From NCBI GenBank assembly GCA_018715045.1, contig DVMH01000027.1:6306-70305 (forward strand): a DNA stretch of 64,000 bases, read 5' to 3'. The notes under the pieces were generated by a model, which did not search any database, was not told the origin of the DNA, and was given only the letters and a program-made list of their open reading frames with translations. The position numbers and the translations under genes are program-made. Positions 650 through 49,216 of this stretch are shown here, piece by piece. Position 1 is the first letter of the stretch; every line of letters begins with the position of its first letter. The DNA is from Candidatus Avidehalobacter gallistercoris. Lineage in GTDB: Bacteria; Bacillota; Dehalobacteriia; UBA4068; UBA4997.

Positions 650-3600
650 TCAGTCTGCCAAGTCAGTCCAGTTTTCTGCACTGCCAGACTTTTTGTATTC
701 GTGGCCGTTGGTGGCCTCGATGATGTTATAGTACGCCCAGTTGCTTACCGATACATCGGAGAAAGTGCGCAGACTGCCTGCATGAGCATCTACATAATCT
801 TCATCCGCCGCACGATCCAACAGACGGTTTGTGATGGTGGTCACTTCAGCACGGGTAATGGTATTGTTCGGGCGGAAAGAGCCGTCCTCATAGCCATTGA
901 TCCAGCCATACTGAATCGAGCCAACCACCTGATCATAGAACCAGTCGTCCTCATCTACATCAGTGAAGATGTTTTTGCCGCCGGTATCCAGTTCGGCAAA
1001 GCCCATGGCAATAACCGTAAACTCGGCGCGGGTAATGGCGCGATTCGGGTCGAAACGGTTATCGCCCACACCCTTAATAATTCCAAGAGACGCCAGAGTA
1101 TTCACAGGTTTGGCATACCATGCGTTATCCGCCACATCAACAAAATTCGCCGTTATGGCAACATTTTTATCCAGCAGCAGGTTATAGAACATCTGCGCCA
1201 CCTCGGCACGGGTCATAACACTGCCCGGAGCAAAAGCGCCATCAGCATAGCCGTTCAGGTAAGCGTTATGGTCTTTGGTGTTCAGCCAATCGGATACGTT
1301 GGTATCGTCAGGATCAGCCACACCGCTTTCCAGAGCAAAAATTGCCTCGATAGTGTGTCTTTCCCGCACTTTTTCAAAAGTGTACTTCTCCACTGCGCCG
1401 ACGCTCTCGCCGTCCACCAGCACGTCAGAGATCTCATAGCCTTCGTTGGCCGTGATGGTGAAAGTCCTTTCGCCATTGCGGATCACACTTACGCTGCCGT
1501 CAGGGCTGATCTTGCCGCCCTTGCCGGCGCTGGCGTTGATGATATAGCGGGTGGCGCCGCCGCCGGTATTCACGGCAAAGCTGGCGGTTATGGCCGCATT
1601 GGCAGTGATGTTTTCAATCTCATAACTGCTTACCGCGCCAACGCTTTGACCGTTGACGGTAACATCAGAGATGTGATAGCCTGAATTAGCGGCGATAGTG
1701 AAAGTCTGATTTTCGCCGCGCTTCACAAACACTGTGCCGCTCGGGCTGATTGTACCGTTAGCGCCAGCCTGCGCCGTAACGGTCAGATAGGTTGGCTCGT
1801 CGGGAATACCGTCACCGTCAGTATCCTCGCCAAAGTAGGCTACGACAGCGCTGTCCGCCTGCACATCTTCAAGGGTCCAGACGCTTTCAAACGGATTTTC
1901 GGCGTCATTGTTGGCATAGACCACATCATCGTTGACAGTGATGTAATCCAGAGCATAGTCCGCGTTCGCAGTGATGGTGAATTCAACATCATCGCCAGCC
2001 CTGACCACCTTAGTAGCAGGACTAATGGAGCCGTTGTTGGAACCGTCCACGCTGGCGGTTACGGTGTAGGTCTTGTATTTGTCAGGAATGCCATTGCTGT
2101 CAGCATCTTCGGCGAAAGTCACGACGATGCTATGGTCTGCCTGGACATCCGAGAAAGTATAGGTCTTGTTATCCTTATCATATCCTGCCAGGTCCTCTGT
2201 GCCATCGTTGCAGAACGGCGTTCTGTCAATGTAGATAAGATCCACTGCATATCCGGAAGCAGGGCTCAGCGTGAACGCCTTTTCGCCACCCTTCGTAACC
2301 GTAGTGGCCTTATCGGGATTAATGCTGCCATTCAGGCCGGCAAAAGGATAAATTACATAATCATTGCCAAGAACGTCCGCGCGGCCATCACCGTCCGCAT
2401 CGTAGCCCCAAACCGCATAAACGGTGATATTCGCCTTATCAAAGGTTACAGCAGGAACAATTGTAATCTTTGCAAAAGCTGCTTTATCATCATCGCTGTC
2501 GCTATAGATTTGATCGGTATCATTTGCAGACCAGCCAATGAATACTACTTTCTTTGCATCAGCTCCAGATTCCGTATAGGAAAGACTGCTGCCGTCAGCC
2601 AGCACCACAGTCTGTCCGGAAATATAATCGTTATCATCGGTTATACCGCCGGTAACAGTATCATTCTCCATAGCGTTCGTATCATAGGTCAAGGCGTACT
2701 TAGCCGCCTGCTCCACATCCGGAACGCCATCCCCGTCCTCATCATAAGCCCAGGCGGCGTAGAGCTGTGTGCCGGTTGCGGAAATCGTTACGCTGTACTG
2801 GAGCTTGCTCAAAACGCCTGTATCTTCAGCACCGTAAATTTTATTATCCTCTTTATCATTTTCTGTCAGCCAGCCGAGGAACAAGACGTCTTTTCCATCC
2901 ACCGCATCGTGCGTCGGGGCATCTACCTTAACGGCGGAATCCGTAAACCGATAACTCTTTTCTTCCAGATGCTGCTTGGTAATCGTTGCATTACCATCCG
3001 CGAACTCACCGCCGTTAGCGTTATAAGTCAACGTGCGGTTGTATTTATCGGGGATATTACCGTCGCCTGTAACTGCATCAAAAGTGATACTTATGGTATG
3101 ATTAGCCGCTACATTGTTGAAGCTGACCGCCTGGAAGCTGGTGGAAGTGTAGCCAGCACCGCTGGGAGAAGCCGCGCCATTAGTATTCTTGTACGGAACG
3201 TTGTCCACCGTAATGGTATCCACAGCATAACCGGAATCCGGGGTAATATTTACCGTCAGGTTTTGCCCCGCAACCACAGAGTAAGTGTTAGAGAGCGTTC
3301 TCGCCAAACTGTTCGCAGCAGGCTGATTAAAACTATAATCAACTGCGGCGGAGCCATTGTCGCCAGTTTCCACCGTGATAGTCCAGGTACCATCATTAAT
3401 ATCCGCAGTGCCATTGCCGTCAGCATCATAGCCCCAAACAGCATAAACCGTCGTATTTCCTGTGATATCCACAGAGGTAACTATATCAGTAGGCCGTGAA
3501 TCATTGACACTGTAAATATTTTCATGCTTAGTTTCAGACCAGCCCATGCACACAACCGCTACGGTCTTTTTATCCCAAGTGCCTTCAGCGTGGGTGGGAA

Positions 3601-6600
3601 GAGGCGCACCACTCAACAGCGTATAGCCTGTCTGCGCCACTACGTCAACAGTTTTTGTTGTCGCATTATCAGCAAATGCGCCGCCGTTAGCGTTATAAGT
3701 CAGAGTGTAGACATCCTCCGCCACATCAGCCGTACCATCGTTGTTGGTGTCGTAACCCCAAACCGCGTAAAGAGTCGTGTTAGTGTTCGGCATCGTATAC
3801 TGAGCGCTCGCTGCATATACGGTCAGAGCAGCAAATTCCTGCTTGTCTTCCAGGCTGTATATCTTATCCGTCTTAGTTTCCGTCCAGCCGATGAAAGCCA
3901 CTGCCTTGCCATCCACATTGCTGTGCGCCGGTTTATCCACCGACAGGGCAACAGTTGTGCCACCCTGTATACCGCCCTGCTGAGCAGGCACCCCTGTTAC
4001 CGTGCCCTCGATCGCATTGCCGTTATAAGTAAGCAGATATGTTGCCGTAGTAGCATCATATGCATTGGTGACGGTCACGCTCTTATCTAAGGTCACAGTA
4101 CCACTTTTGTCCGCATAATTGATGTAACCGCCCTGGCCGACCGCAGCAACTACATCTCCGGTAAACGCAGGTGTATAACCGTCAACATGAGTCTGCGTCA
4201 ACTGATATTGGGCGCCCACGGGCAGACCCTCAATCACTGCCGTATCCCCAGCTTTCAGGCTGAACGTACCGCCATTGCTTATTTTTGTGCCAGAATCAGT
4301 GTTGTTAATCTTAATCGCATATGCGCCGGAAAGAGCAGTCTGACCATTCAGGTTAGAGAGATTCAGGGTATAAGTAAACTCCTGATCTTGATTTGCACCA
4401 TCTCCAGTGGTAGCATCCACAGTCACGGTAAGGCTGCCGGTAAGCGCAGCCTCCGTCAGCAGGCCGTTGTTACCCAGACGCACGGTGACCTGCCCATTAG
4501 CAAACACGGGATAGTTATATGTCGATGCGGTATCGGTCACATTTGGAGATTTAACGAAATTCGCATCGGCTACGCGGGAGAGCTTATCGGTACCCGCTTT
4601 GATGTACAGAACGCTATCCACTATCATAGCGTTGTTTGATACACTAATACGGCTGCCGTCTTCCAGCATATGATAATCGGTCAGCTTATCGGCAGCATCG
4701 CCTATGCCAGTTGCCTGATAGTAAACATGCTCATAATAATAGGCAAGACCAGGCGTATAGCCTGTCGCCGGCTGAAGCCGGTAAGCAACGTCGTTAACAT
4801 TTACCACATTCTGACCCGGCAGAATAGTCGTTTGACCTGCCGCCGCGGCGGCTGCTTCGGTAAGGTAGGTTGTTGTGCCGCCTGCTGTATTTACCAGATT
4901 ATAGAGAACGGTATCCTCGGTGTACTTATAGAAAGCGTTGGATGATGCGGGCGTGAACACAGCAGTGGCAGTACCATACTGCTCGTCGCCCTGCGTGGCG
5001 CTATCATATTCCCCTGCATAGTAACTGGTTACACCGTTCAGGGAATTAGCCGTCAGATAATCGTTATCCGCAACGCCCCAGGTGTGCGTATCATCTTTGG
5101 CCACCGAGTAAAACAGGCGGATGGGATAGGCATTCTTACCCTCCTGAATAGCATAGGAGATTGTTCCGTTCGGGTCTACGGCAGCCGTGGCCGTGACTGT
5201 ACGCAGCGGCAGAAGATTAGCCGGAATCGTCCAGCTCAACATATTCAGATCATTGTCGCCTTTGGTAACGGTCAACTGGATTGTATTCAGATTGCCGCCG
5301 GGGTAAATATCATTGGCATCGATTTGTTGACTGGGGAAAGTATAGGTTGTCGTATCACCAATTGTATTCGAAGTTACAGCGTCATACTTATTGCCACCAA
5401 ACACGATAGACGGCATACCGGTCACATTCATATATGCCCCCAGCTTATCGGTAAAGGTCAGCACCTTACTATCGCCGCCAGTACCCGCCACGCCCTCAAT
5501 CTCGGTAGTCGGGAAAGAAGGATTGACGGTATTCACCTGATTTATTATTTGATCAAAAATGTTTTGCCAAGCGTCTCCTGTATCAAGATCCGTGGCAGCA
5601 AAGTAACCGTCATTGTACTTCAGGTCATCCAAAGTCAACTCAGTGTTGCTTCCGCGATAAATGGTCTGATATATGTGCCTATCTCTTATAGCAGCTTGTG
5701 CACGCATCAACTGAACAGAAGAATTATTAAATGATTCTAAAGCATCCTTTACAAGTACATTTTCTATACCTATTTGCAAAGCATCCGTCAGAGTTGCCTG
5801 TGGATTCAGCACCAGTTCAGCCATGGTTTTATCGGAATCATTTGTCAGATCGCCCAAACCCACGGTGTAGATATAAGGCTGCTTGCTGTTTCCGTTGTAG
5901 GTATAGTTTTCTTCTATGGCCTGCTTACCATAAGCCGCTGTCAGCAACGATAAAAAACTCTGAGCAATATAGTTCTGCGGGTTAAGATTTGCAATCTGTC
6001 CATCAATATTAAACGGATTTACATAACTAGACTCTTCCATTGCTTGCGGAGTGCCTACATAAAGCTCGTTTCCTCTTTCAGGGTTGCCGCTGGCCATGGA
6101 GATCACCACCGGAACGCGCAACACGGTTTCGGTTTGCCCGCTGGTATTTTTAACCTCAGCCGTTACGTCAGCCGCGCTGGAAAGATTATACATACCCTCG
6201 TTAATGCCCACCTGATAATTCCGATAGCAGGTGCTGTCAAAATCAAAGGCTATCGAGACCAACGGCTGGCCGGTCAAAATACCCCGCGAAGCAACACCGT
6301 CTTGAGTCCGAACCAGAAGTTGAGTGGTTGCGGTTCCATTATCATAGTTCTCATAATGATTCAGAGGCAGCAGGGTCAGTGAGGTGTTATCATAAGTAAC
6401 CACACTAACTCTGTTTTGCGGGTTGGAAACCAGAATCTCACGCAAAGCTGCATTTGCAGCCACAAGCATTTCATTCACATACTGCTCCATATCGGGCGAC
6501 ATATCCAGCACCAGAGAAACATCCATAGGAATCTGTGTCTGATCAATGATCGTGGCAGTCGAACCCAGGGCGGACAATACCACCTGGAAGTCTGCATCAG

Positions 6601-6865
6601 CTGCTTTGTCGATAGTCAGACCGCTGTCGCCCACATCACCCTGAAGCGTGATGCTTTCTTCGGATACGGTTTTATCCGTCCAGATACGGCCAATATCTTT
6701 GGTGGAAAGCGTATCCCCGCCAAAAACCTCACTCCATGTGGTTAAAGTGGAGGCGTCAGTTTGTACGCCCTCTACGTCGTCTGCCATCACCGGCACGCCC
6801 GGCGGAATAACCAATCCCACCAGCATAACCAATGACAGCGCCATTGCTATAAGCTTTCTTTTCAT
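650..6865 (-). CDS. Giant (2,071 aa) secreted, S-layer-homology-anchored adhesin-like protein with a VWA-like head, Listeria-Bacteroides-type repeats, InlB-B-repeat-like modules and 3 C-terminal SLH domains
   Basis: ORF track. Signal peptide MKRKLIAMALSLVMLVGLVIPPGVPVMA. GRIWTDKTV plus DVSLVLDMSPDM form a degenerate MIDAS/VWA-like head. A prealbumin/Cna-B-like segment reads LTGSLTVTVDATTGDG...EGLPVGAQYQLTQTHVDGYTP. Repeated Y(T/A)LTYNANGG...YAVWGYDxDGDGxxDV modules and repeated G(S/T/K)ISP...F(T)I.A..GY.I..V.V modules follow. The C-terminus has three SLH domains. RBS GGAAAGGAG precedes ATG 6865. Confidence 0.9.
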   Translation of the reverse strand: MKRKLIAMALSLVMLVGLVIPPGVPVMADDVEGVQTDASTLTTWSEVFGGDTLSTKDIGRIWTDKTVSEESITLQGDVGDSGLTIDKAADADFQVVLSALGSTATIIDQTQIPMDVSLVLDMSPDMEQYVNEMLVAANAALREILVSNPQNRVSVVTYDNTSLTLLPLNHYENYDNGTATTQLLVRTQDGVASRGILTGQPLVSIAFDFDSTCYRNYQVGINEGMYNLSSAADVTAEVKNTSGQTETVLRVPVVISMASGNPERGNELYVGTPQAMEESSYVNPFNIDGQIANLNPQNYIAQSFLSLLTAAYGKQAIEENYTYNGNSKQPYIYTVGLGDLTNDSDKTMAELVLNPQATLTDALQIGIENVLVKDALESFNNSSVQLMRAQAAIRDRHIYQTIYRGSNTELTLDDLKYNDGYFAATDLDTGDAWQNIFDQIINQVNTVNPSFPTTEIEGVAGTGGDSKVLTFTDKLGAYMNVTGMPSIVFGGNKYDAVTSNTIGDTTTYTFPSQQIDANDIYPGGNLNTIQLTVTKGDNDLNMLSWTIPANLLPLRTVTATAAVDPNGTISYAIQEGKNAYPIRLFYSVAKDDTHTWGVADNDYLTANSLNGVTSYYAGEYDSATQGDEQYGTATAVFTPASSNAFYKYTEDTVLYNLVNTAGGTTTYLTEAAAAAAGQTTILPGQNVVNVNDVAYRLQPATGYTPGLAYYYEHVYYQATGIGDAADKLTDYHMLEDGSRISVSNNAMIVDSVLYIKAGTDKLSRVADANFVKSPNVTDTASTYNYPVFANGQVTVRLGNNGLLTEAALTGSLTVTVDATTGDGANQDQEFTYTLNLSNLNGQTALSGAYAIKINNTDSGTKISNGGTFSLKAGDTAVIEGLPVGAQYQLTQTHVDGYTPAFTGDVVAAVGQGGYINYADKSGTVTLDKSVTVTNAYDATTATYLLTYNGNAIEGTVTGVPAQQGGIQGGTTVALSVDKPAHSNVDGKAVAFIGWTETKTDKIYSLEDKQEFAALTVYAASAQYTMPNTNTTLYAVWGYDTNNDGTADVAEDVYTLTYNANGGAFADNATTKTVDVVAQTGYTLLSGAPLPTHAEGTWDKKTVAVVCMGWSETKHENIYSVNDSRPTDIVTSVDITGNTTVYAVWGYDADGNGTADINDGTWTITVETGDNGSAAVDYSFNQPAANSLARTLSNTYSVVAGQNLTVNITPDSGYAVDTITVDNVPYKNTNGAASPSGAGYTSTSFQAVSFNNVAANHTISITFDAVTGDGNIPDKYNRTLTYNANGGEFADGNATITKQHLEEKSYRFTDSAVKVDAPTHDAVDGKDVLFLGWLTENDKEDNKIYGAEDTGVLSKLQYSVTISATGTQLYAAWAYDEDGDGVPDVEQAAKYALTYDTNAMENDTVTGGITDDNDYISGQTVVLADGSSLSYTESGADAKKVVFIGWSANDTDQIYSDSDDDKAAFAKITIVPAVTFDKANITVYAVWGYDADGDGRADVLGNDYVIYPFAGLNGSINPDKATTVTKGGEKAFTLSPASGYAVDLIYIDRTPFCNDGTEDLAGYDKDNKTYTFSDVQADHSIVVTFAEDADSNGIPDKYKTYTVTASVDGSNNGSISPATKVVRAGDDVEFTITANADYALDYITVNDDVVYANNDAENPFESVWTLEDVQADSAVVAYFGEDTDGDGIPDEPTYLTVTAQAGANGTISPSGTVFVKRGENQTFTIAANSGYHISDVTVNGQSVGAVSSYEIENITANAAITASFAVNTGGGATRYIINASAGKGGKISPDGSVSVIRNGERTFTITANEGYEISDVLVDGESVGAVEKYTFEKVRERHTIEAIFALESGVADPDDTNVSDWLNTKDHNAYLNGYADGAFAPGSVMTRAEVAQMFYNLLLDKNVAITANFVDVADNAWYAKPVNTLASLGIIKGVGDNRFDPNRAITRAEFTVIAMGFAELDTGGKNIFTDVDEDDWFYDQVVGSIQYGWINGYEDGSFRPNNTITRAEVTTITNRLLDRAADEDYVDAHAGSLRTFSDVSVSNWAYYNIIEATNGHEYKKSGSAENWTDLAD
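653..1297 (-). other. C-terminal cell-wall anchor: three tandem SLH domains plus a fourth SLH-like remnant (last 215 aa of the giant CDS)
   Basis: The three domains read VSDWLNTKDHNAYLNGYADGAFAPGSVMTRAEVAQMFYNLL, FVDVADNAWYAKPVNTLASLGIIKGVGDNRFDPNRAITRAEFTVIAMGFA and FTDVDEDDWFYDQVVGSIQYGWINGYEDGSFRPNNTITRAEVTTITNRLL. FSDVSVSNWAYYNIIEA is the remnant. Coordinates come from counting residues back from the stop. Confidence 0.85.
2370..4045 (-). repeat. Four tandem protein-coding modules inside the giant CDS (Listeria-Bacteroides/Flg_new-type repeat followed by a DxDxDG acidic loop); borders approximate
   Basis: Modules begin TYLLTYNGNAIEG, VYTLTYNANGGAFADN, RTLTYNANGGEFADG and YALTYDTNAMEND. 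Each ends (L/V)YA(V/A)W(G/A)YD(T/A/E)(N/D)(N/G)DG(T/V/R)(A/P)DV. The recurring WGYD-encoding DNA is visible near 3770, 3435, 2750 and 2410. Confidence 0.7.
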
Positions 6866-6965
6866 GCCATTGTTTCTCCTTTCCTGCTAATCCAGCTTTC
6901 AACGCTTGACTACATTGATCCTTTTCTGTGACAACCCTATACCCTGATAGCCACCTGGTAGAATA

Positions 6966-6994
6966 ATCATACCAGAAAAAAAAAAAAATACAAT
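6966..6994 (-). promoter_or_regulatory. Predicted sigma-A-type promoter of the giant adhesin gene, with a spacer made almost entirely of a T13 homopolymer
   Basis: The - strand reads TTGTA-T13-CTGG-TATGAT. The -10 is TATGAT (6966-6971) with an upstream TGG (extended -10-like). The spacer is CTGG plus a T-run (A13 at 6976-6988 on the + strand). The -35-like element is TTGTAT/ATTGTA. The predicted 5' UTR is about 95 nt. Confidence 0.45.
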
Positions 6995-7058
6995 AACCAA
7001 TTGTAAATAGACCATAAAAATCCGGCATTATTTCCGACAGATTTCCGCTTATTACGCA

Positions 7059-7100
7059 TAAAAAAACGCCCCCGGCCAAATGGCCAGAGGCGTTTTTTTA
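7059..7100. terminator. Bidirectional Rho-independent terminator (ends hppA on the - strand)
   Basis: Stem AACGCCCCCGGCC / GGCCAGAGGCGTT with a 4-nt loop. It is flanked by an A7 run on the left and a T7 run on the right. Confidence 0.8.
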
Positions 7101-7121
7101 TGCATTTTGTTATCTATCTGT

Positions 7122-9164
7122 TTACAGGAACAGGGGCACGAAGACCAGCGCGATAATCGTCATCAGCTTGATCAGAATGTTGATGGACGGACCCGAAGTA
7201 TCCTTGAAAGGATCGCCCACAGTGTCGCCGTTAACAGCCGCCGCGTGCGCATCAGAGCCTTTGCCGCCAAAGTGGCCGCCCTCGATGTACTTCTTGGCGT
7301 TATCCCAGGCGCCGCCCGCGTTGCTCATCATCACAGCCAGCAGGAAACCGGTCACCAGAGAGCCGGCCAGCAGACCGCCCAGAGCCTCAGGCCCCAGCAC
7401 CAGGCCGACAAACAGCGGCGCAACCACAGCCAGCACAGCCGGCATAACCATCTCACGCAGAGCCGCCGTAGTAGAGATATCCACGCAGCGGGCATAATCC
7501 GGCTTGGCAGCGCCCTCCATCAGGCCGGGGATTTCACGGAACTGACGGCGCACCTCAGTAATCATATGCGAAGCCGAACGCCCCACAGCGCTCATTGTCA
7601 TCGCAGAGAACAGGAATGGCAGCATACCGCCGATAAACAGGCCGATAACCACCATCGGATTCATAATATCAATATTGGTAACTCCCGCTGCCTGCGTGTA
7701 GGCGGAAAACAGCGCCAAAGCAGTCAGCGCAGCAGAACCAATAGCAAAGCCCTTGCCGATGGCAGCGGTGGTGTTGCCAACCGCGTCCAGATTATCGGTG
7801 ATCTCACGCACATGGTGTTCCAGACCGGCCATCTCAGCAATGCCGCCAGCATTATCGGAAATCGGGCCATACGCGTCAACCGCCACCACAATGCCGGTGG
7901 TGGAAAGCATACCCACAGCCGCGATGGCAATGCCGTACAGACCGGCAAAGTAAAACGCAGCGCCGATACCGCAGCAGATAACGATGATCGGCAGCGCGGT
8001 GGAAGTCATCCCAGTGGCAATACCGGAAATGATGTTGGTCGCAGTGCCAGTCTCGCAGGAAGCGGCAATGTCCTTAACCGGCTTATAGTCAGCCGAAGTG
8101 TAATATTCGGTGATCTTACCAATCAATGTACCGGCCACCAGACCAGCCACACTGGCAATGAACACGCCGGTGTTGGTGTACATACCGTTCTGGAAAGTTT
8201 CCGGCAGAACAAACTTGCAGATAACGAACGTGCCCACGATAGAAAGCAGCGTTGCCACATATGTACCGGCGTCCAGAGCTTTCTGGGGGTTTTTGCCCTC
8301 GCCCGTGCGCACAAAGAAAGTGCCGATAATGCTGGAAACAATGCCCCAGGCCGCCAGCAGCAGCGGCACGATAACGCCCTCGCCGTTATCTCCGATAGCC
8401 AAAGACGCGCCCAGCGCAATGGCTGCAATAACAGAACCAACATAAGATTCAAACAAGTCGGAACCCATACCGGCCACGTCGCCGACGTTATCGCCCACGT
8501 TATCAGCAATAACCGCCGGGTTACGCGGATCATCTTCGGGAATACCGGCCTCAACCTTGCCAACCAGGTCAGCGCCCACGTCGGCAGCCTTGGTGTAGAT
8601 ACCGCCGCCCACACGGCCAAACAGAGCCACGGACGAAGCGCCCAGGCTGAATCCGTTAATAATGTCAGACTGACCGGGGAAAAGCAAAACCACAATACCC
8701 AGACCCAAAAGACCCAGGCCAACCACGCTCATGCCCATAACAGCGCCGCCGGAGAAAGCCACGCTCAAAGCCTTGTTCAGGCCGGAGGCCTGCGCAGCAT
8801 TGGCAGTTCTGGCATTGGCCTTGGTTGCAATACGCATACCGATATTGCCAGCCAGAATGGAGCAGACCGCGCCAATCAGGAAAGGAACGGCAGTCAGCGG
8901 ATTCAGGCCGCCCTCAGTGCCGCCGGTAATCATACCGGCCCCCACGATGACCAGCGCCATAACCACGACGAAAATAACCAGAGTTTTATACTGACGGCCC
9001 AAAAAAGCCATTGCGCCCTCATGGATAGAATTCATAATCTCCACCATGCGGTCATTGCCGGGCTCCACAGCCGTCACCCGCTTGGCCAGCACCACTGCGA
9101 ACAGCAATGCCAGCACGCCGGCCAACGCACCGATCACCGGAGCGTAATTCATAATGAAATCCAT
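7122..9164 (-). CDS. hppA: Membrane-bound ion-translocating pyrophosphatase (K+-dependent subfamily signature)
   Basis: 680 aa and polytopic. Diagnostic motifs are [76 protein letters not shown] and [29 protein letters not shown] (Ala rather than Lys) is the K+-dependent signature. H+ versus Na+ coupling cannot be told by eye. Confidence 0.95.
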
Positions 9165-9666: not shown

Positions 9667-10707
9667 ATGCACATTCACGGCGGCGACATTTACACTTATC
9701 AGAATATGCTGGATTTTTCGGCCAACATCAACCCTCTTGGCATACCAGAGAGCGTTGTGCGGGCAGCAGCGGCGGGAGCGGCGGCCTCCGCATCCTATCC
9801 CGACCCAAAATGCCGCCGGCTGAAAGCGGCTATAGCGGCGCACGAACAGACGCCGGAGGAGTATGTCGTCTGCGGCAACGGCGCAGCGGATCTGATCTTC
9901 CAGCTGGCGTTGGCTGCAAAACCCAGGCGCGCCCTGCTGCTCGCCCCCGGTTTCCATGAATATGAACAGGCTCTCCGCACTGTAGACTGCCAGGTTGATT
10001 TCTTCTATCTTAAAGAGGAAGACGGCTTCCGGCTGGCCGACGCCTATCTGGAGGCACTCACTCCAGGTCTGGATATCGTGTTTTTGTGCAATCCTAACAA
10101 TCCCACCGGGCTGGCCGTGCCGCGCCCGGCGCTGCTCCGGATATTGGAGAAATGCCGCGACATCGGCGCCCGTCTGGTCATGGATGAGTGCTTCAACGAA
10201 TTCCTGGACGAGCCCGCCGCCTATAGCCTTAAGCCAGAGCTATCCGCTTATCCCAACCTGTTCATTCTGAAAGCGTTCACCAAGATATACGCCATGCCCG
10301 GTTTGCGTCTGGGCTATGGCCTATGCGCTGACCAGGCGCTGCTGGCGGCCCTCGCCGAAGCCGCTCAGCCATGGAGCGTATCTATCCCCGCACAGGAGGC
10401 AGGGCTGGCAGCGCTCACGGAAACCGAATACGTCGCCCGCGCCAAGGCGCTGGTCAAAGACGAGCGGGAACGCCTACAAGACGCCCTGGCAGCGCTGGGC
10501 TGCCGAACCTACGGTTCTATGGCCAACTATATATTCTTCCGCAGCGTGCCGGGATTGGCTGAGGCCTGCCGCGCGCATAACCTGCTGCTGCGGGATTGCA
10601 GCAACTATCAGGGGCTTTGCCCCGGCTATTTTCGTGCGGCAGTGAAGCTGCCGGAGCAAAACAACCAACTGCTGGCCGTTCTGACTGCGGTATTAGCCGA
10701 ATTTTGA
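9667..10707 (+). CDS. cobD: L-threonine-O-3-phosphate decarboxylase (class I/II aminotransferase fold)
   Basis: 346 aa. The N-terminus MHIHGGDIYTYQNMLDFSANINPLGIPESV is characteristic of CobD. Also has CNPNNPTG and the FTKIYAMPGLRLGY PLP-lysine region. Sits in a B12 gene context. Confidence 0.8.
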   Translation: MHIHGGDIYTYQNMLDFSANINPLGIPESVVRAAAAGAAASASYPDPKCRRLKAAIAAHEQTPEEYVVCGNGAADLIFQLALAAKPRRALLLAPGFHEYEQALRTVDCQVDFFYLKEEDGFRLADAYLEALTPGLDIVFLCNPNNPTGLAVPRPALLRILEKCRDIGARLVMDECFNEFLDEPAAYSLKPELSAYPNLFILKAFTKIYAMPGLRLGYGLCADQALLAALAEAAQPWSVSIPAQEAGLAALTETEYVARAKALVKDERERLQDALAALGCRTYGSMANYIFFRSVPGLAEACRAHNLLLRDCSNYQGLCPGYFRAAVKLPEQNNQLLAVLTAVLAEF

Positions 10708-10793: not shown

Positions 10794-10950
10794 AATTACA
10801 GAAAAACAAACGGTAACGACACATGTTTAGCCATGCTAGTAAATCTGATTACGGCACCGTAATACAGAGCATAGGCTGAAGCATGTGCCGTTTTTTGTTT
10901 ACCGGAAAACGAACGCCAGCGCCCAAGCGGCGTTATTTTTTTCTGTAATT
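10794..10950 (+). promoter_or_regulatory. Structured ~160-nt leader element: nested inverted repeats with two terminator-like hairpins (attenuator, unknown riboswitch or MITE-like insert)
   Basis: An outer 13-bp stem pairs AATTACAGAAAAA (10794-10806) with TTTTTCTGTAATT (10938-10950). Inside it, a long imperfect hairpin (~10813-10890, e.g. ACGACACATGTTTAGCCATGCT / AGCATAGGCTGAAGCATGTGCCGT) is followed by T6. A second hairpin AACGCC...GGCGTT (10912-10934) is followed by A-T7. No B12-box or other motif I recognise. Confidence 0.5.
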
Positions 10951-35062: not shown

Positions 35063-35241
35063 CAGCTACTCTCCCCGCCGTTACTATCTGCCCAAAGCGC
35101 TTTTGTTTATCGCCCAAAAGTATTCGCCGCGCGGTGGGCATTATCCTTTTTTCCGCACGACAGTCAAGGCGCAGGCAGCCTGTTCGTCGGTATATGTTGC
35201 CCAAACCGCCGCCAAAATATACCAATTATACCAGCCGCCTG

Positions 35242-37396: not shown

Positions 37397-37444
37397 GCCT
37401 TACCCCCGCGCCTCGCGGGGCATTTTTTTTTGAGGAGGCACGCC

Positions 37445-49183: not shown

Positions 49184-49216
49184 AAAAAAAAACGGCCTGC
49201 ACATAAGCGCAGGCCG
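49184..49216 (-). terminator. Rho-independent terminator after the HD-GYP-like gene
   Basis: Stem CGGCCTGC / GCAGGCCG. The A9 run (49184-49192) on the + strand gives a U9 tract on the - strand. Confidence 0.75.

Follow-up and report, generated by a model that had tools for sequence, protein, structure and literature searches.

Organization of the Locus

The DNA considered here, hereafter called the window, is a stretch of 64 kb from Candidatus Avidehalobacter gallistercoris (assembly GCA_018715045.1, contig DVMH01000027.1, positions 6,306-70,305 of the forward strand). The species received its name from chicken faecal metagenomes (PMC8035907), and the NCBI taxonomy places its genus in Clostridia, within Peptococcaceae incertae sedis. 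The locus consists of the gene for a giant surface protein, preceded on the minus strand by hppA, the gene for a membrane pyrophosphatase, with a long poly(T) tract in the region between them. A MAG that bears the name Candidatus Avidehalobacter gallistercoris supplies an NCBI protein with 100% identity to the giant protein, and the nearest HppA from a named organism, among the matches listed, is that of Dehalobacterium formicoaceticum (76%). The features of the locus, all on the minus strand, are the following.

650-6865, minus strand: gene for the giant surface protein of 2071 aa, an open reading frame with a signal peptide, a weak VWA-like head, DUF7601, an InlB B-repeat and a C-terminal SLH region
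6866-6959, minus strand: predicted 5' leader of ~94 nt, its extent following from the -10 element and the start codon (6865), with the ribosome-binding site GGAG at 6879-6876
6966-6974, minus strand: predicted extended -10 element TGgTATGAT (hexamer TATGAT at 6971-6966), matching TATAAT at 5/6 positions and carrying TG at -15/-14
6976-6988, minus strand: poly(T) tract, T13 (A13 on the plus strand), read directly from the sequence; a simple repeat, very probably hypermutable
6988-6993, minus strand: weak -35-like hexamer TTGTAT, matching TTGACA at 3/6 positions, its last T being the first T of the tract
7000-7005, minus strand: alternative -10-like hexamer TACAAT, a 5/6 match without TG and without a -35 better than 3/6
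7018-7047, minus strand: three direct repeats (CGGAAAT, CGGAAAT, CGGATTT) spaced 11-12 bp, read by eye and statistically not compelling
7056-7103, minus strand: hairpin terminator of the upstream pyrophosphatase gene, of the form A7-stem-loop-stem-T7, with a 23-nt inverted repeat that is 91% complementary
7122-9164, minus strand: membrane pyrophosphatase gene hppA (PF03030, E = 5.6e-282), the conserved upstream neighbour

Reading along the minus strand from hppA, one meets the stop codon of this gene, its terminator, ~60 nt of AT-rich DNA, the composite element TTGTA-T13-CTGG-TATGAT, the leader and the ATG at 6865. The composite element reads exactly as in the original prediction that led to this analysis, namely TTGTA (6993-6989), T13 (6988-6976, equivalent to A13 at 6976-6988 of the plus strand), CTGG (6975-6972) and TATGAT (6971-6966). 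The hairpin at 7056-7103 parts the promoter of the giant gene from hppA transcription.

The tract is the sole homopolymer of at least 10 bases in the window and hence the longest, followed by two T9 runs (37423-37431 and 49184-49192) that are both terminator tails of GC-rich hairpins. Under an independent-base model, runs of at least 13 are expected ~0.008 times per window and ~1e-4 times per 256-nt intergenic region. A 13-mer is therefore conspicuous as predicted, even if the GC-rich background to which the prediction appealed amounts to 53.7% GC in the window, which is only moderately GC-rich.

Two other roles of the tract region were considered and rejected. The T-run is not the tail of an intrinsic terminator, since the preceding 90 nt fold no better than shuffled sequences (z = +0.38); no stable hairpin lies before the tract and a terminator scan finds none. 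An inverton at the window locus was discarded too, the terminator palindrome being the only inverted repeat in 6500-7300, and no recombinase gene is present beside the adhesin gene in the A. gallistercoris loci examined. Rfam searches of 6500-7500 returned only sub-threshold matches arising from the terminator hairpin and no riboswitch or leader family. A pattern scan of genome contigs for GGTTATTGTA-N(4-30)-CTGGTATGAT retrieved 25 loci, all of them chance matches in unrelated taxa, and a longer flank pattern scanned against metagenome contigs gave no match.

The Predicted Promoter

The tract lies directly before the best -10 candidate, for TGgTATGAT ranked first in a relaxed scan of the intergenic region. 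Its general pattern, TGNTATRAT, occurs nine times in the window against 2.9 expected, a number that none of 100 shuffles reached, and the other intergenic matches stand before genes, as in the case of TTGCTA-17-TGcTATAAT upstream of secG-hppA. On the far side of the tract and separated by a spacer of 16 nt, TTGTAT occupies the place of the -35 element, but it matches the consensus TTGACA at only 3/6 positions and, because of this, a scan for consensus sigma-70-type promoters called none between 6500 and 7500. The earlier claim that this is the only good promoter-like element upstream of the giant gene needs correction, in that the hexamer of the extended -10 is the best of its kind there and not the sole one, TACAAT being another 5/6 match, without the TG.

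The spacing originally proposed also requires correction. Measured from TTGTAT to the six-base hexamer TATGAT, the spacer is 13, 14, 15, 16 and 17 nt for T10, T11, T12, T13 and T14, respectively, so that T12, T13 and T14 give 15, 16 and 17 nt instead of the 16, 17 and 18 nt claimed, a difference of one. Extended -10 promoters can work without a -35 element, and the spacing might consequently matter little at this locus.

A different geometry would result if transcription started upstream of the tract, either from TACAAT (7005-7000) or because polymerase reads through the terminator of hppA. In that case the U-run would act within the leader, through reiterative transcription, mRNA stability or the frameshifting of a small upstream ORF (7015-6899, 38 aa at T13). 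Transcripts begun from TACAAT would contain the tract at about +5 to +18, and a 38-aa ORF across the tract, the reading frame of which shifts with tract length, was annotated by the gene caller in one lineage-2 assembly (L036). We regard this possibility as very improbable, given that the 5/6 match of TACAAT comes without a TG and with no -35 better than 3/6, that a strong hairpin terminator stands between hppA and the tract and that folding of the 5' leader reveals no significant RNA structure (z = -0.2). The small ORF itself has been judged spurious, because it lacks a convincing ribosome-binding site and is called in 1/13 loci.

Tract Length among Natural Strains

Tract lengths were taken as consensus calls from short-read metagenome assemblies, 14 in all including the window, with hppA serving as the handle for retrieving homologous loci. 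The HppA protein is identical on 21 contigs. Lineage 1, as compared here, comprises ten loci of 6-8 kb with exactly this protein, obtained from different samples (L001 to L010), plus the window; lineage 2 comprises three assemblies with a different adhesin allele, P0002. Nine further contigs similar to L001 exist beyond the loci compared.

The tract measures T10 in L007, T11 in L001, T12 in L002, L004, L008, L009 and L010, and T13 in L003, L005, L006 and the window (the source runs include SRR12972273 for T10, ERZ28614714/SAMEA6814453 for T11, SRR23239677/73/66 for T12 and SRR11482355 for T13). All three samples of lineage 2 (SRR21721022/25/26) carry T13 and the same promoter as the window. 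The run is uninterrupted in every assembly, which places it among the perfect homopolymers of about 8-9 bases or more that characterize repeat switches. The comparison of tract length across strains and MAGs, suggested beforehand as a check, has therefore uncovered variation from T10 to T13 in 14 assemblies, that is four alleles, with flanks that are nearly invariant; length polymorphism combined with conserved flanks is another hallmark of such switches. An invariant tract, the outcome that would have spoken against the idea, is not what these assemblies show.

The extent of this conservation is apparent in an alignment of 8,047 columns for the 11 lineage-1 sequences, which contains eight substitution columns and one indel outside the tract. 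Six assemblies, L002, L004, L006, L007, L008 and L009, have zero substitutions over their common sequence and yet possess tracts of T12, T12, T13, T10, T12 and T12, respectively. Since these six substitution-free assemblies carry three tract alleles, the tract is very probably a mutational hotspot: at least three length changes in 13 bp, compared with nine events in the other ~8,030 bp, correspond to a roughly 200-fold excess per base. In a control of 21.8 kb from three assemblies, admittedly a thin one that adds two loci, we found two substitutions and constant T9, A9 and A8 tracts. On the strength of these sequence comparisons, the tract is very probably hypermutable in nature as well as in the assemblies. 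Homopolymers of 10-13 bases are, however, intrinsically unstable, and variability alone is for this reason no proof of function.

A less interesting origin of the variation would be a true tract of invariant length, blurred by slippage during library PCR or by errors of sequencing and assembly consensus. All the sequences derive from short-read metagenome assemblies, in which homopolymers of 10 or more bases are error-prone (PMC8808543). This explanation nevertheless appears quite improbable to us. The four lengths span a wider range than plus or minus one, and they are reproducible within studies, three SRR232396xx samples all having T12 and three SRR217210xx samples of lineage 2 all having T13. 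They also track a linked SNP haplotype, for G at 5992 is found in the window, L003 and L005, all three with T13. Within-study agreement and the 5992 haplotype together argue against random assembly noise. Moreover, typical assembly k-mers are longer than the tract, and assemblies are therefore not broken by it. A residual artefact of plus or minus one may still affect the tract lengths.

Two other features of the alignment deserve mention. The sole indel outside the tract in the 8 kb of the 11 assemblies is an A7-to-A8 change in L010, located in the region of window position 10943 between the genes for an MFS transporter and an aminotransferase; it accords with the idea that indels in this near-clonal species generally arise by slippage. 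Separately, L001, the assembly with T11, shows four substitutions within 48 nt of the adhesin leader (window positions 6947, 6922, 6921 and 6900) and is otherwise free of private changes over the 8 kb. These substitutions are not compensatory in any predicted structure, and their clustering possibly reflects recombination of a small patch or selection acting on regulatory DNA.

A Surface Protein with a Variable Head

The giant protein begins with a signal peptide (MKRKLIAMALSLVMLVGLVIPPGVPVMADD), followed near the N-terminus by a match to VWA_2 that is weak and lies below the Pfam cut-off in the window protein; most of its homologues have VWA or VWA_2 in precomputed domain lists. The C-terminal SLH region matches structures of Bacillus anthracis Sap. 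We thus consider the protein to be a putative adhesin, secreted and anchored by its SLH region. The surface-protein target that had been claimed for the promoter is borne out by the signal peptide, the SLH anchors and the VWA-like head, and the presence of DUF7601 and of an allelic head is equally in keeping with a surface or host-interaction gene.

Allelic variation of the head emerges from the comparison between the two lineages. The lineage-2 allele, P0002, is 79% identical to the window adhesin, and the nucleotide identity between the window and lineage 2 (L036) falls to 56-63% in the region 6570-5090, which encodes approximately residues 100-590. Conversely, hppA, the promoter and the 3' part coding for the SLH region are 98-100% identical between lineages. 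From this pattern the head looks like an allelic cassette, probably exchanged by recombination, and such head replacement is typical of receptor-binding proteins under diversifying selection.

The contigs of L002, L008, L009 and L010 end inside the adhesin gene. Alleles co-existing in the same sample could be the cause of these interruptions, although the contigs of L008 and L010 stop short of the divergent region or just where it begins.

Absence of the Adhesin in Sister Species

In the sister species, the HppA of which is 95% or 92% identical (L049-L061), the adhesin is absent and hppA is followed by genes for an MBL-fold protein, HtrA and RlmH. Given this absence, the adhesin gene, probably along with the genes for an ECF-like sigma factor and a DUF4367 protein that follow it, can be regarded as an accessory insertion, and the comparison of the tract is confined to the lineages of A. 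gallistercoris. Judging from gene content, the adhesin region would be a recent acquisition and evolutionarily young.

The same loci of the sister species (L049-L061, ~5543-5720) have a promoter of the form TTGAAA/TTCAAA-17-TATAAT before the genes for the MBL-fold protein, HtrA and RlmH, with CTGGT in its spacer. The adhesin promoter may be derived from this ancestral promoter, but its similarity to it is weak.

Invertible Promoters at Homologous Loci

Distant homologues of the adhesin (37-50% identity) in other Clostridia adjoin genes for tyrosine recombinases. Homopolymers of at least 8 bases are missing from three of these loci (L044-L046) and from the 300 nt upstream of the gene in five others (L039-L043). 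The combination of flanking inverted repeats and a recombinase gene, which is not found at the adhesin gene of the window, is present in L039-L046.

One case is the locus of P0051, a homologue of 2141 aa with 37% identity. Just past the tyrosine recombinase gene, at L039 265-546, inverted repeats of 27 nt bracket a segment of 228 bp, downstream of which lie a 274-aa ORF and the gene for P0051. Compared with the same coordinates in L040, L041 and L042, this segment of L039 is reverse-complemented without a mismatch (228/228), and in the L039 orientation a promoter, TTGATT-17-TGgTAAAAT, is aimed at the adhesin operon. This segment is a real inverton, seen in its ON and OFF states.

At another locus, represented by L044, L045 and L046, a 22-nt inverted repeat with 95% complementarity (2176-2197 / 2435-2456) brackets 237 bp between the stop codon of the recombinase and the start of the adhesin. 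L044 contains a second pair of inverted repeats (10261-10283 / 10505-10527) around 221 bp, after a second recombinase gene. These segments are candidate invertons, found in one orientation only among these loci. Three very different adhesin alleles of 2188, 1956 and 1747 aa occupy the L044-L046 locus, with identical neighbours (SpoIIID, SpoVT and integrase). The P0003 cluster has 1583 member sequences.

The adhesin family is demonstrably under stochastic promoter switching elsewhere. By analogy only, inversion switches before the homologues raise the plausibility of another kind of stochastic device on the gene of Avidehalobacter.

Proposed Mechanism

We propose that the poly(T) tract is a contingency locus within the core promoter of an SLH-anchored surface protein, providing volume or on/off control of its expression, and we assign this reading a probability of roughly 0.5. 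Slipped-strand mispairing at replication would add or remove T's in a tract situated at about -18 to -30 of the predicted extended -10 promoter for sigma-A. Each T would shift the -10 element in distance and, by about 34 degrees per bp, in helical phase with respect to TTGTAT, or to activator or UP-like sites further upstream, and by precedent this would change initiation by the sigma-A RNA polymerase. The population would then be a heritable and rapidly reversible mix of levels of surface-protein expression. At the population level, slippage changing the number of T's is documented by the assembled sequences; that transcription starts where predicted, that it responds to tract length and that a single lineage can reverse the change is what we infer.

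There is published precedent. Sigma docking is influenced by repeats placed between -35 and -10, and a T-tract beside the -35 can serve as a rheostat (PMC4081817). The level of NspA switches with a change of one base in the A-tract of its promoter (PMC6389960).

The observed lengths bear on the form that control might take. The nominal optimum of 17 nt would require T14, an allele absent from all 14 assemblies, the common T12 and T13 corresponding to 15 and 16 nt. With spacers of 13-16 nt for all the alleles found, the population does not display a clean on/off toggle about 17 nt, and graded control, or an effect of phasing on upstream elements, has at least the likelihood of an on/off switch. 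Of the promoter-spacer switch originally envisaged, the location of the tract relative to the best -10, its polymorphism and its surface-protein target have been sustained, and the weakness of the -35 and the lack of a 17-nt allele speak against the switch in its strict form. An effect of tract length on adhesin transcription seems to us about evenly poised between true and false, and that it would operate specifically via the -35/-10 distance is doubtful. If spacing does matter, T13 would be the highest-expressing of the observed alleles, with T10-T12 progressively lower or off.

Alternatively, the tract could be a neutral microsatellite, hypermutable and without meaningful effect on expression, the T-run being AT-rich filler in a young island and the -35 being unused. 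The 3/6 match of TTGTAT and the blank consensus scan are in line with this view, as is the extended -10 at 35225-35233 of the window, which is likewise without a good -35. Also compatible are the coexistence of T10-T13 in nature with no preference for the 17-nt spacing, and the youth of a region the whole gene of which is missing in sister species. Against it, the other long homopolymers in the window are only terminator tails of at most 9 bases, and the one long tract coincides with the core promoter for a variable surface protein with homologues under stochastic inversion switches. In addition, moving upstream DNA by 1-3 bp relative to the -10 normally alters promoter strength (PMC4081817). 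On balance we consider neutrality rather unlikely.

A live functional alternative, though one that we deem unlikely, is that the extended -10 is used alone and the length of the tract aligns upstream UP-like or activator sites with it, producing a multiphasic output. Phasing of upstream sites by tract length has precedents in Helicobacter pylori sabA and the Bordetella fim promoters. Lying at about -18 to -30, the tract displaces all the DNA upstream, and four lengths are observed instead of two states. The sabA mechanism is documented for T9 to T18 (PMC4081817). Three 7-mer direct repeats with a periodicity of 11-12 bp are present ~30-60 bp upstream of the tract; speculatively, these CGGAAAT-like sequences might be activator sites (of the response-regulator type) or UP-like sites, but they are short and could have arisen by chance, and the available sequences are too similar to reveal conservation. 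Furthermore, the sabA tract is upstream of the -35 element whereas the Avidehalobacter tract is downstream of the only -35 candidate with a TTG.

Comparison with Known Systems

The contingency locus proposed here has its closest relatives among the repeats located in promoter spacers, which reportedly include the poly(A) of Mycoplasma hyorhinis vlp, the poly(G) of Neisseria meningitidis porA, the poly(C) of opc and the TA repeat of Haemophilus influenzae hifA/B. To our knowledge, what is understood of phase variation by promoter repeats comes almost wholly from a few pathogens, namely Neisseria, Haemophilus, Helicobacter and mycoplasmas. The class of repeats between -35 and -10 has been summarized previously (PMC4081817). 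The Avidehalobacter tract shares with vlp, porA, opc and hif a pure mononucleotide run that separates a -35-like hexamer with TTG from the -10 before the gene for a surface protein, with a length that differs among strains and alters the spacer in one-base steps. It departs from them in its host, a gut commensal of the Gram-positive-type class Clostridia known from metagenomes only, in the combination of a weak -35 with an extended -10, which makes dependence on the spacing uncertain, and in its spacers of 13-16 nt, never 17.

The resemblance to sabA consists of a poly(T) of similar length that borders the core promoter of an adhesin gene on its upstream side, with several natural length alleles and an output that is plausibly graded rather than binary. 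T13 is the high-expression allele of sabA in strain SMI109 (PMC4081817; PMC2715451). The sabA tract, however, precedes the -35 and aligns UP-like A-boxes, and sabA has a coding CT repeat, none of which was noted in the Avidehalobacter gene. A tract of at least 9 bases adjacent to the upstream side of a -35 is not what we find, and the arrangement would be of the sabA type only if the promoter had no -35.

Comparison with nspA (PMC6389960) is also instructive, for there a one-base difference in a promoter homopolymer sets a surface protein low or high and the alleles segregate in natural isolates. The nspA tract has 5-6 bases and is fairly stable, whereas the Avidehalobacter tract, with 10-13 bases, should mutate much faster.

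Within Clostridia, the stochastic and heritable control of surface proteins proposed here is akin to that of Clostridioides difficile cwpV, flgB and pdcB and of the Bacteroides invertons (PMC11868660), and homologues of the Avidehalobacter adhesin family stand behind such switches. The Avidehalobacter device would differ in being driven by replication slippage, not by site-specific recombination. A review of 2025 treats clostridial phase variation in terms of invertible promoters only (PMC11868660). Our literature search found no report on the A. gallistercoris promoter and no promoter-repeat contingency locus in Clostridia (or Dehalobacteriia).

We tentatively suggest, with somewhat less than even confidence, that one family of giant, SLH-anchored and VWA-headed surface proteins of gut Clostridia has come under stochastic control on more than one occasion and by different devices, Oscillospiraceae-like relatives using recombinase-driven inversion and Avidehalobacter a slipping poly(T) combined with head replacement between strains. 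The tract would be a credible example of the known control of surface-protein expression by slipping repeats. If this is true, the promoter-repeat mechanism would be extended to an uncultured commensal of the chicken gut, and the locus would indicate that strong selection, by host, phage or immunity, acts on a surface protein in poultry microbiomes. As a marker, the locus would moreover have the advantage that metagenomes directly yield its allele frequencies. With inverton-controlled homologues as a parallel, this adhesin family is a useful case for studying the convergent evolution of bet-hedging.

Genes Following the Adhesin

Beyond the adhesin gene, one lineage-2 contig (L036 9473-11415) codes for an ECF-like sigma factor of 178 aa with a weak Sigma70_r4_2 match, a DUF4367 protein of 287 aa that is possibly an anti-sigma factor and a 148-aa ORF; the window covers only the start of the equivalent region, below position 650. 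No promoter motif is evidently common to this group of genes and the region upstream of the adhesin. The three genes have their own terminator and promoter and may constitute a dedicated regulator of the island.
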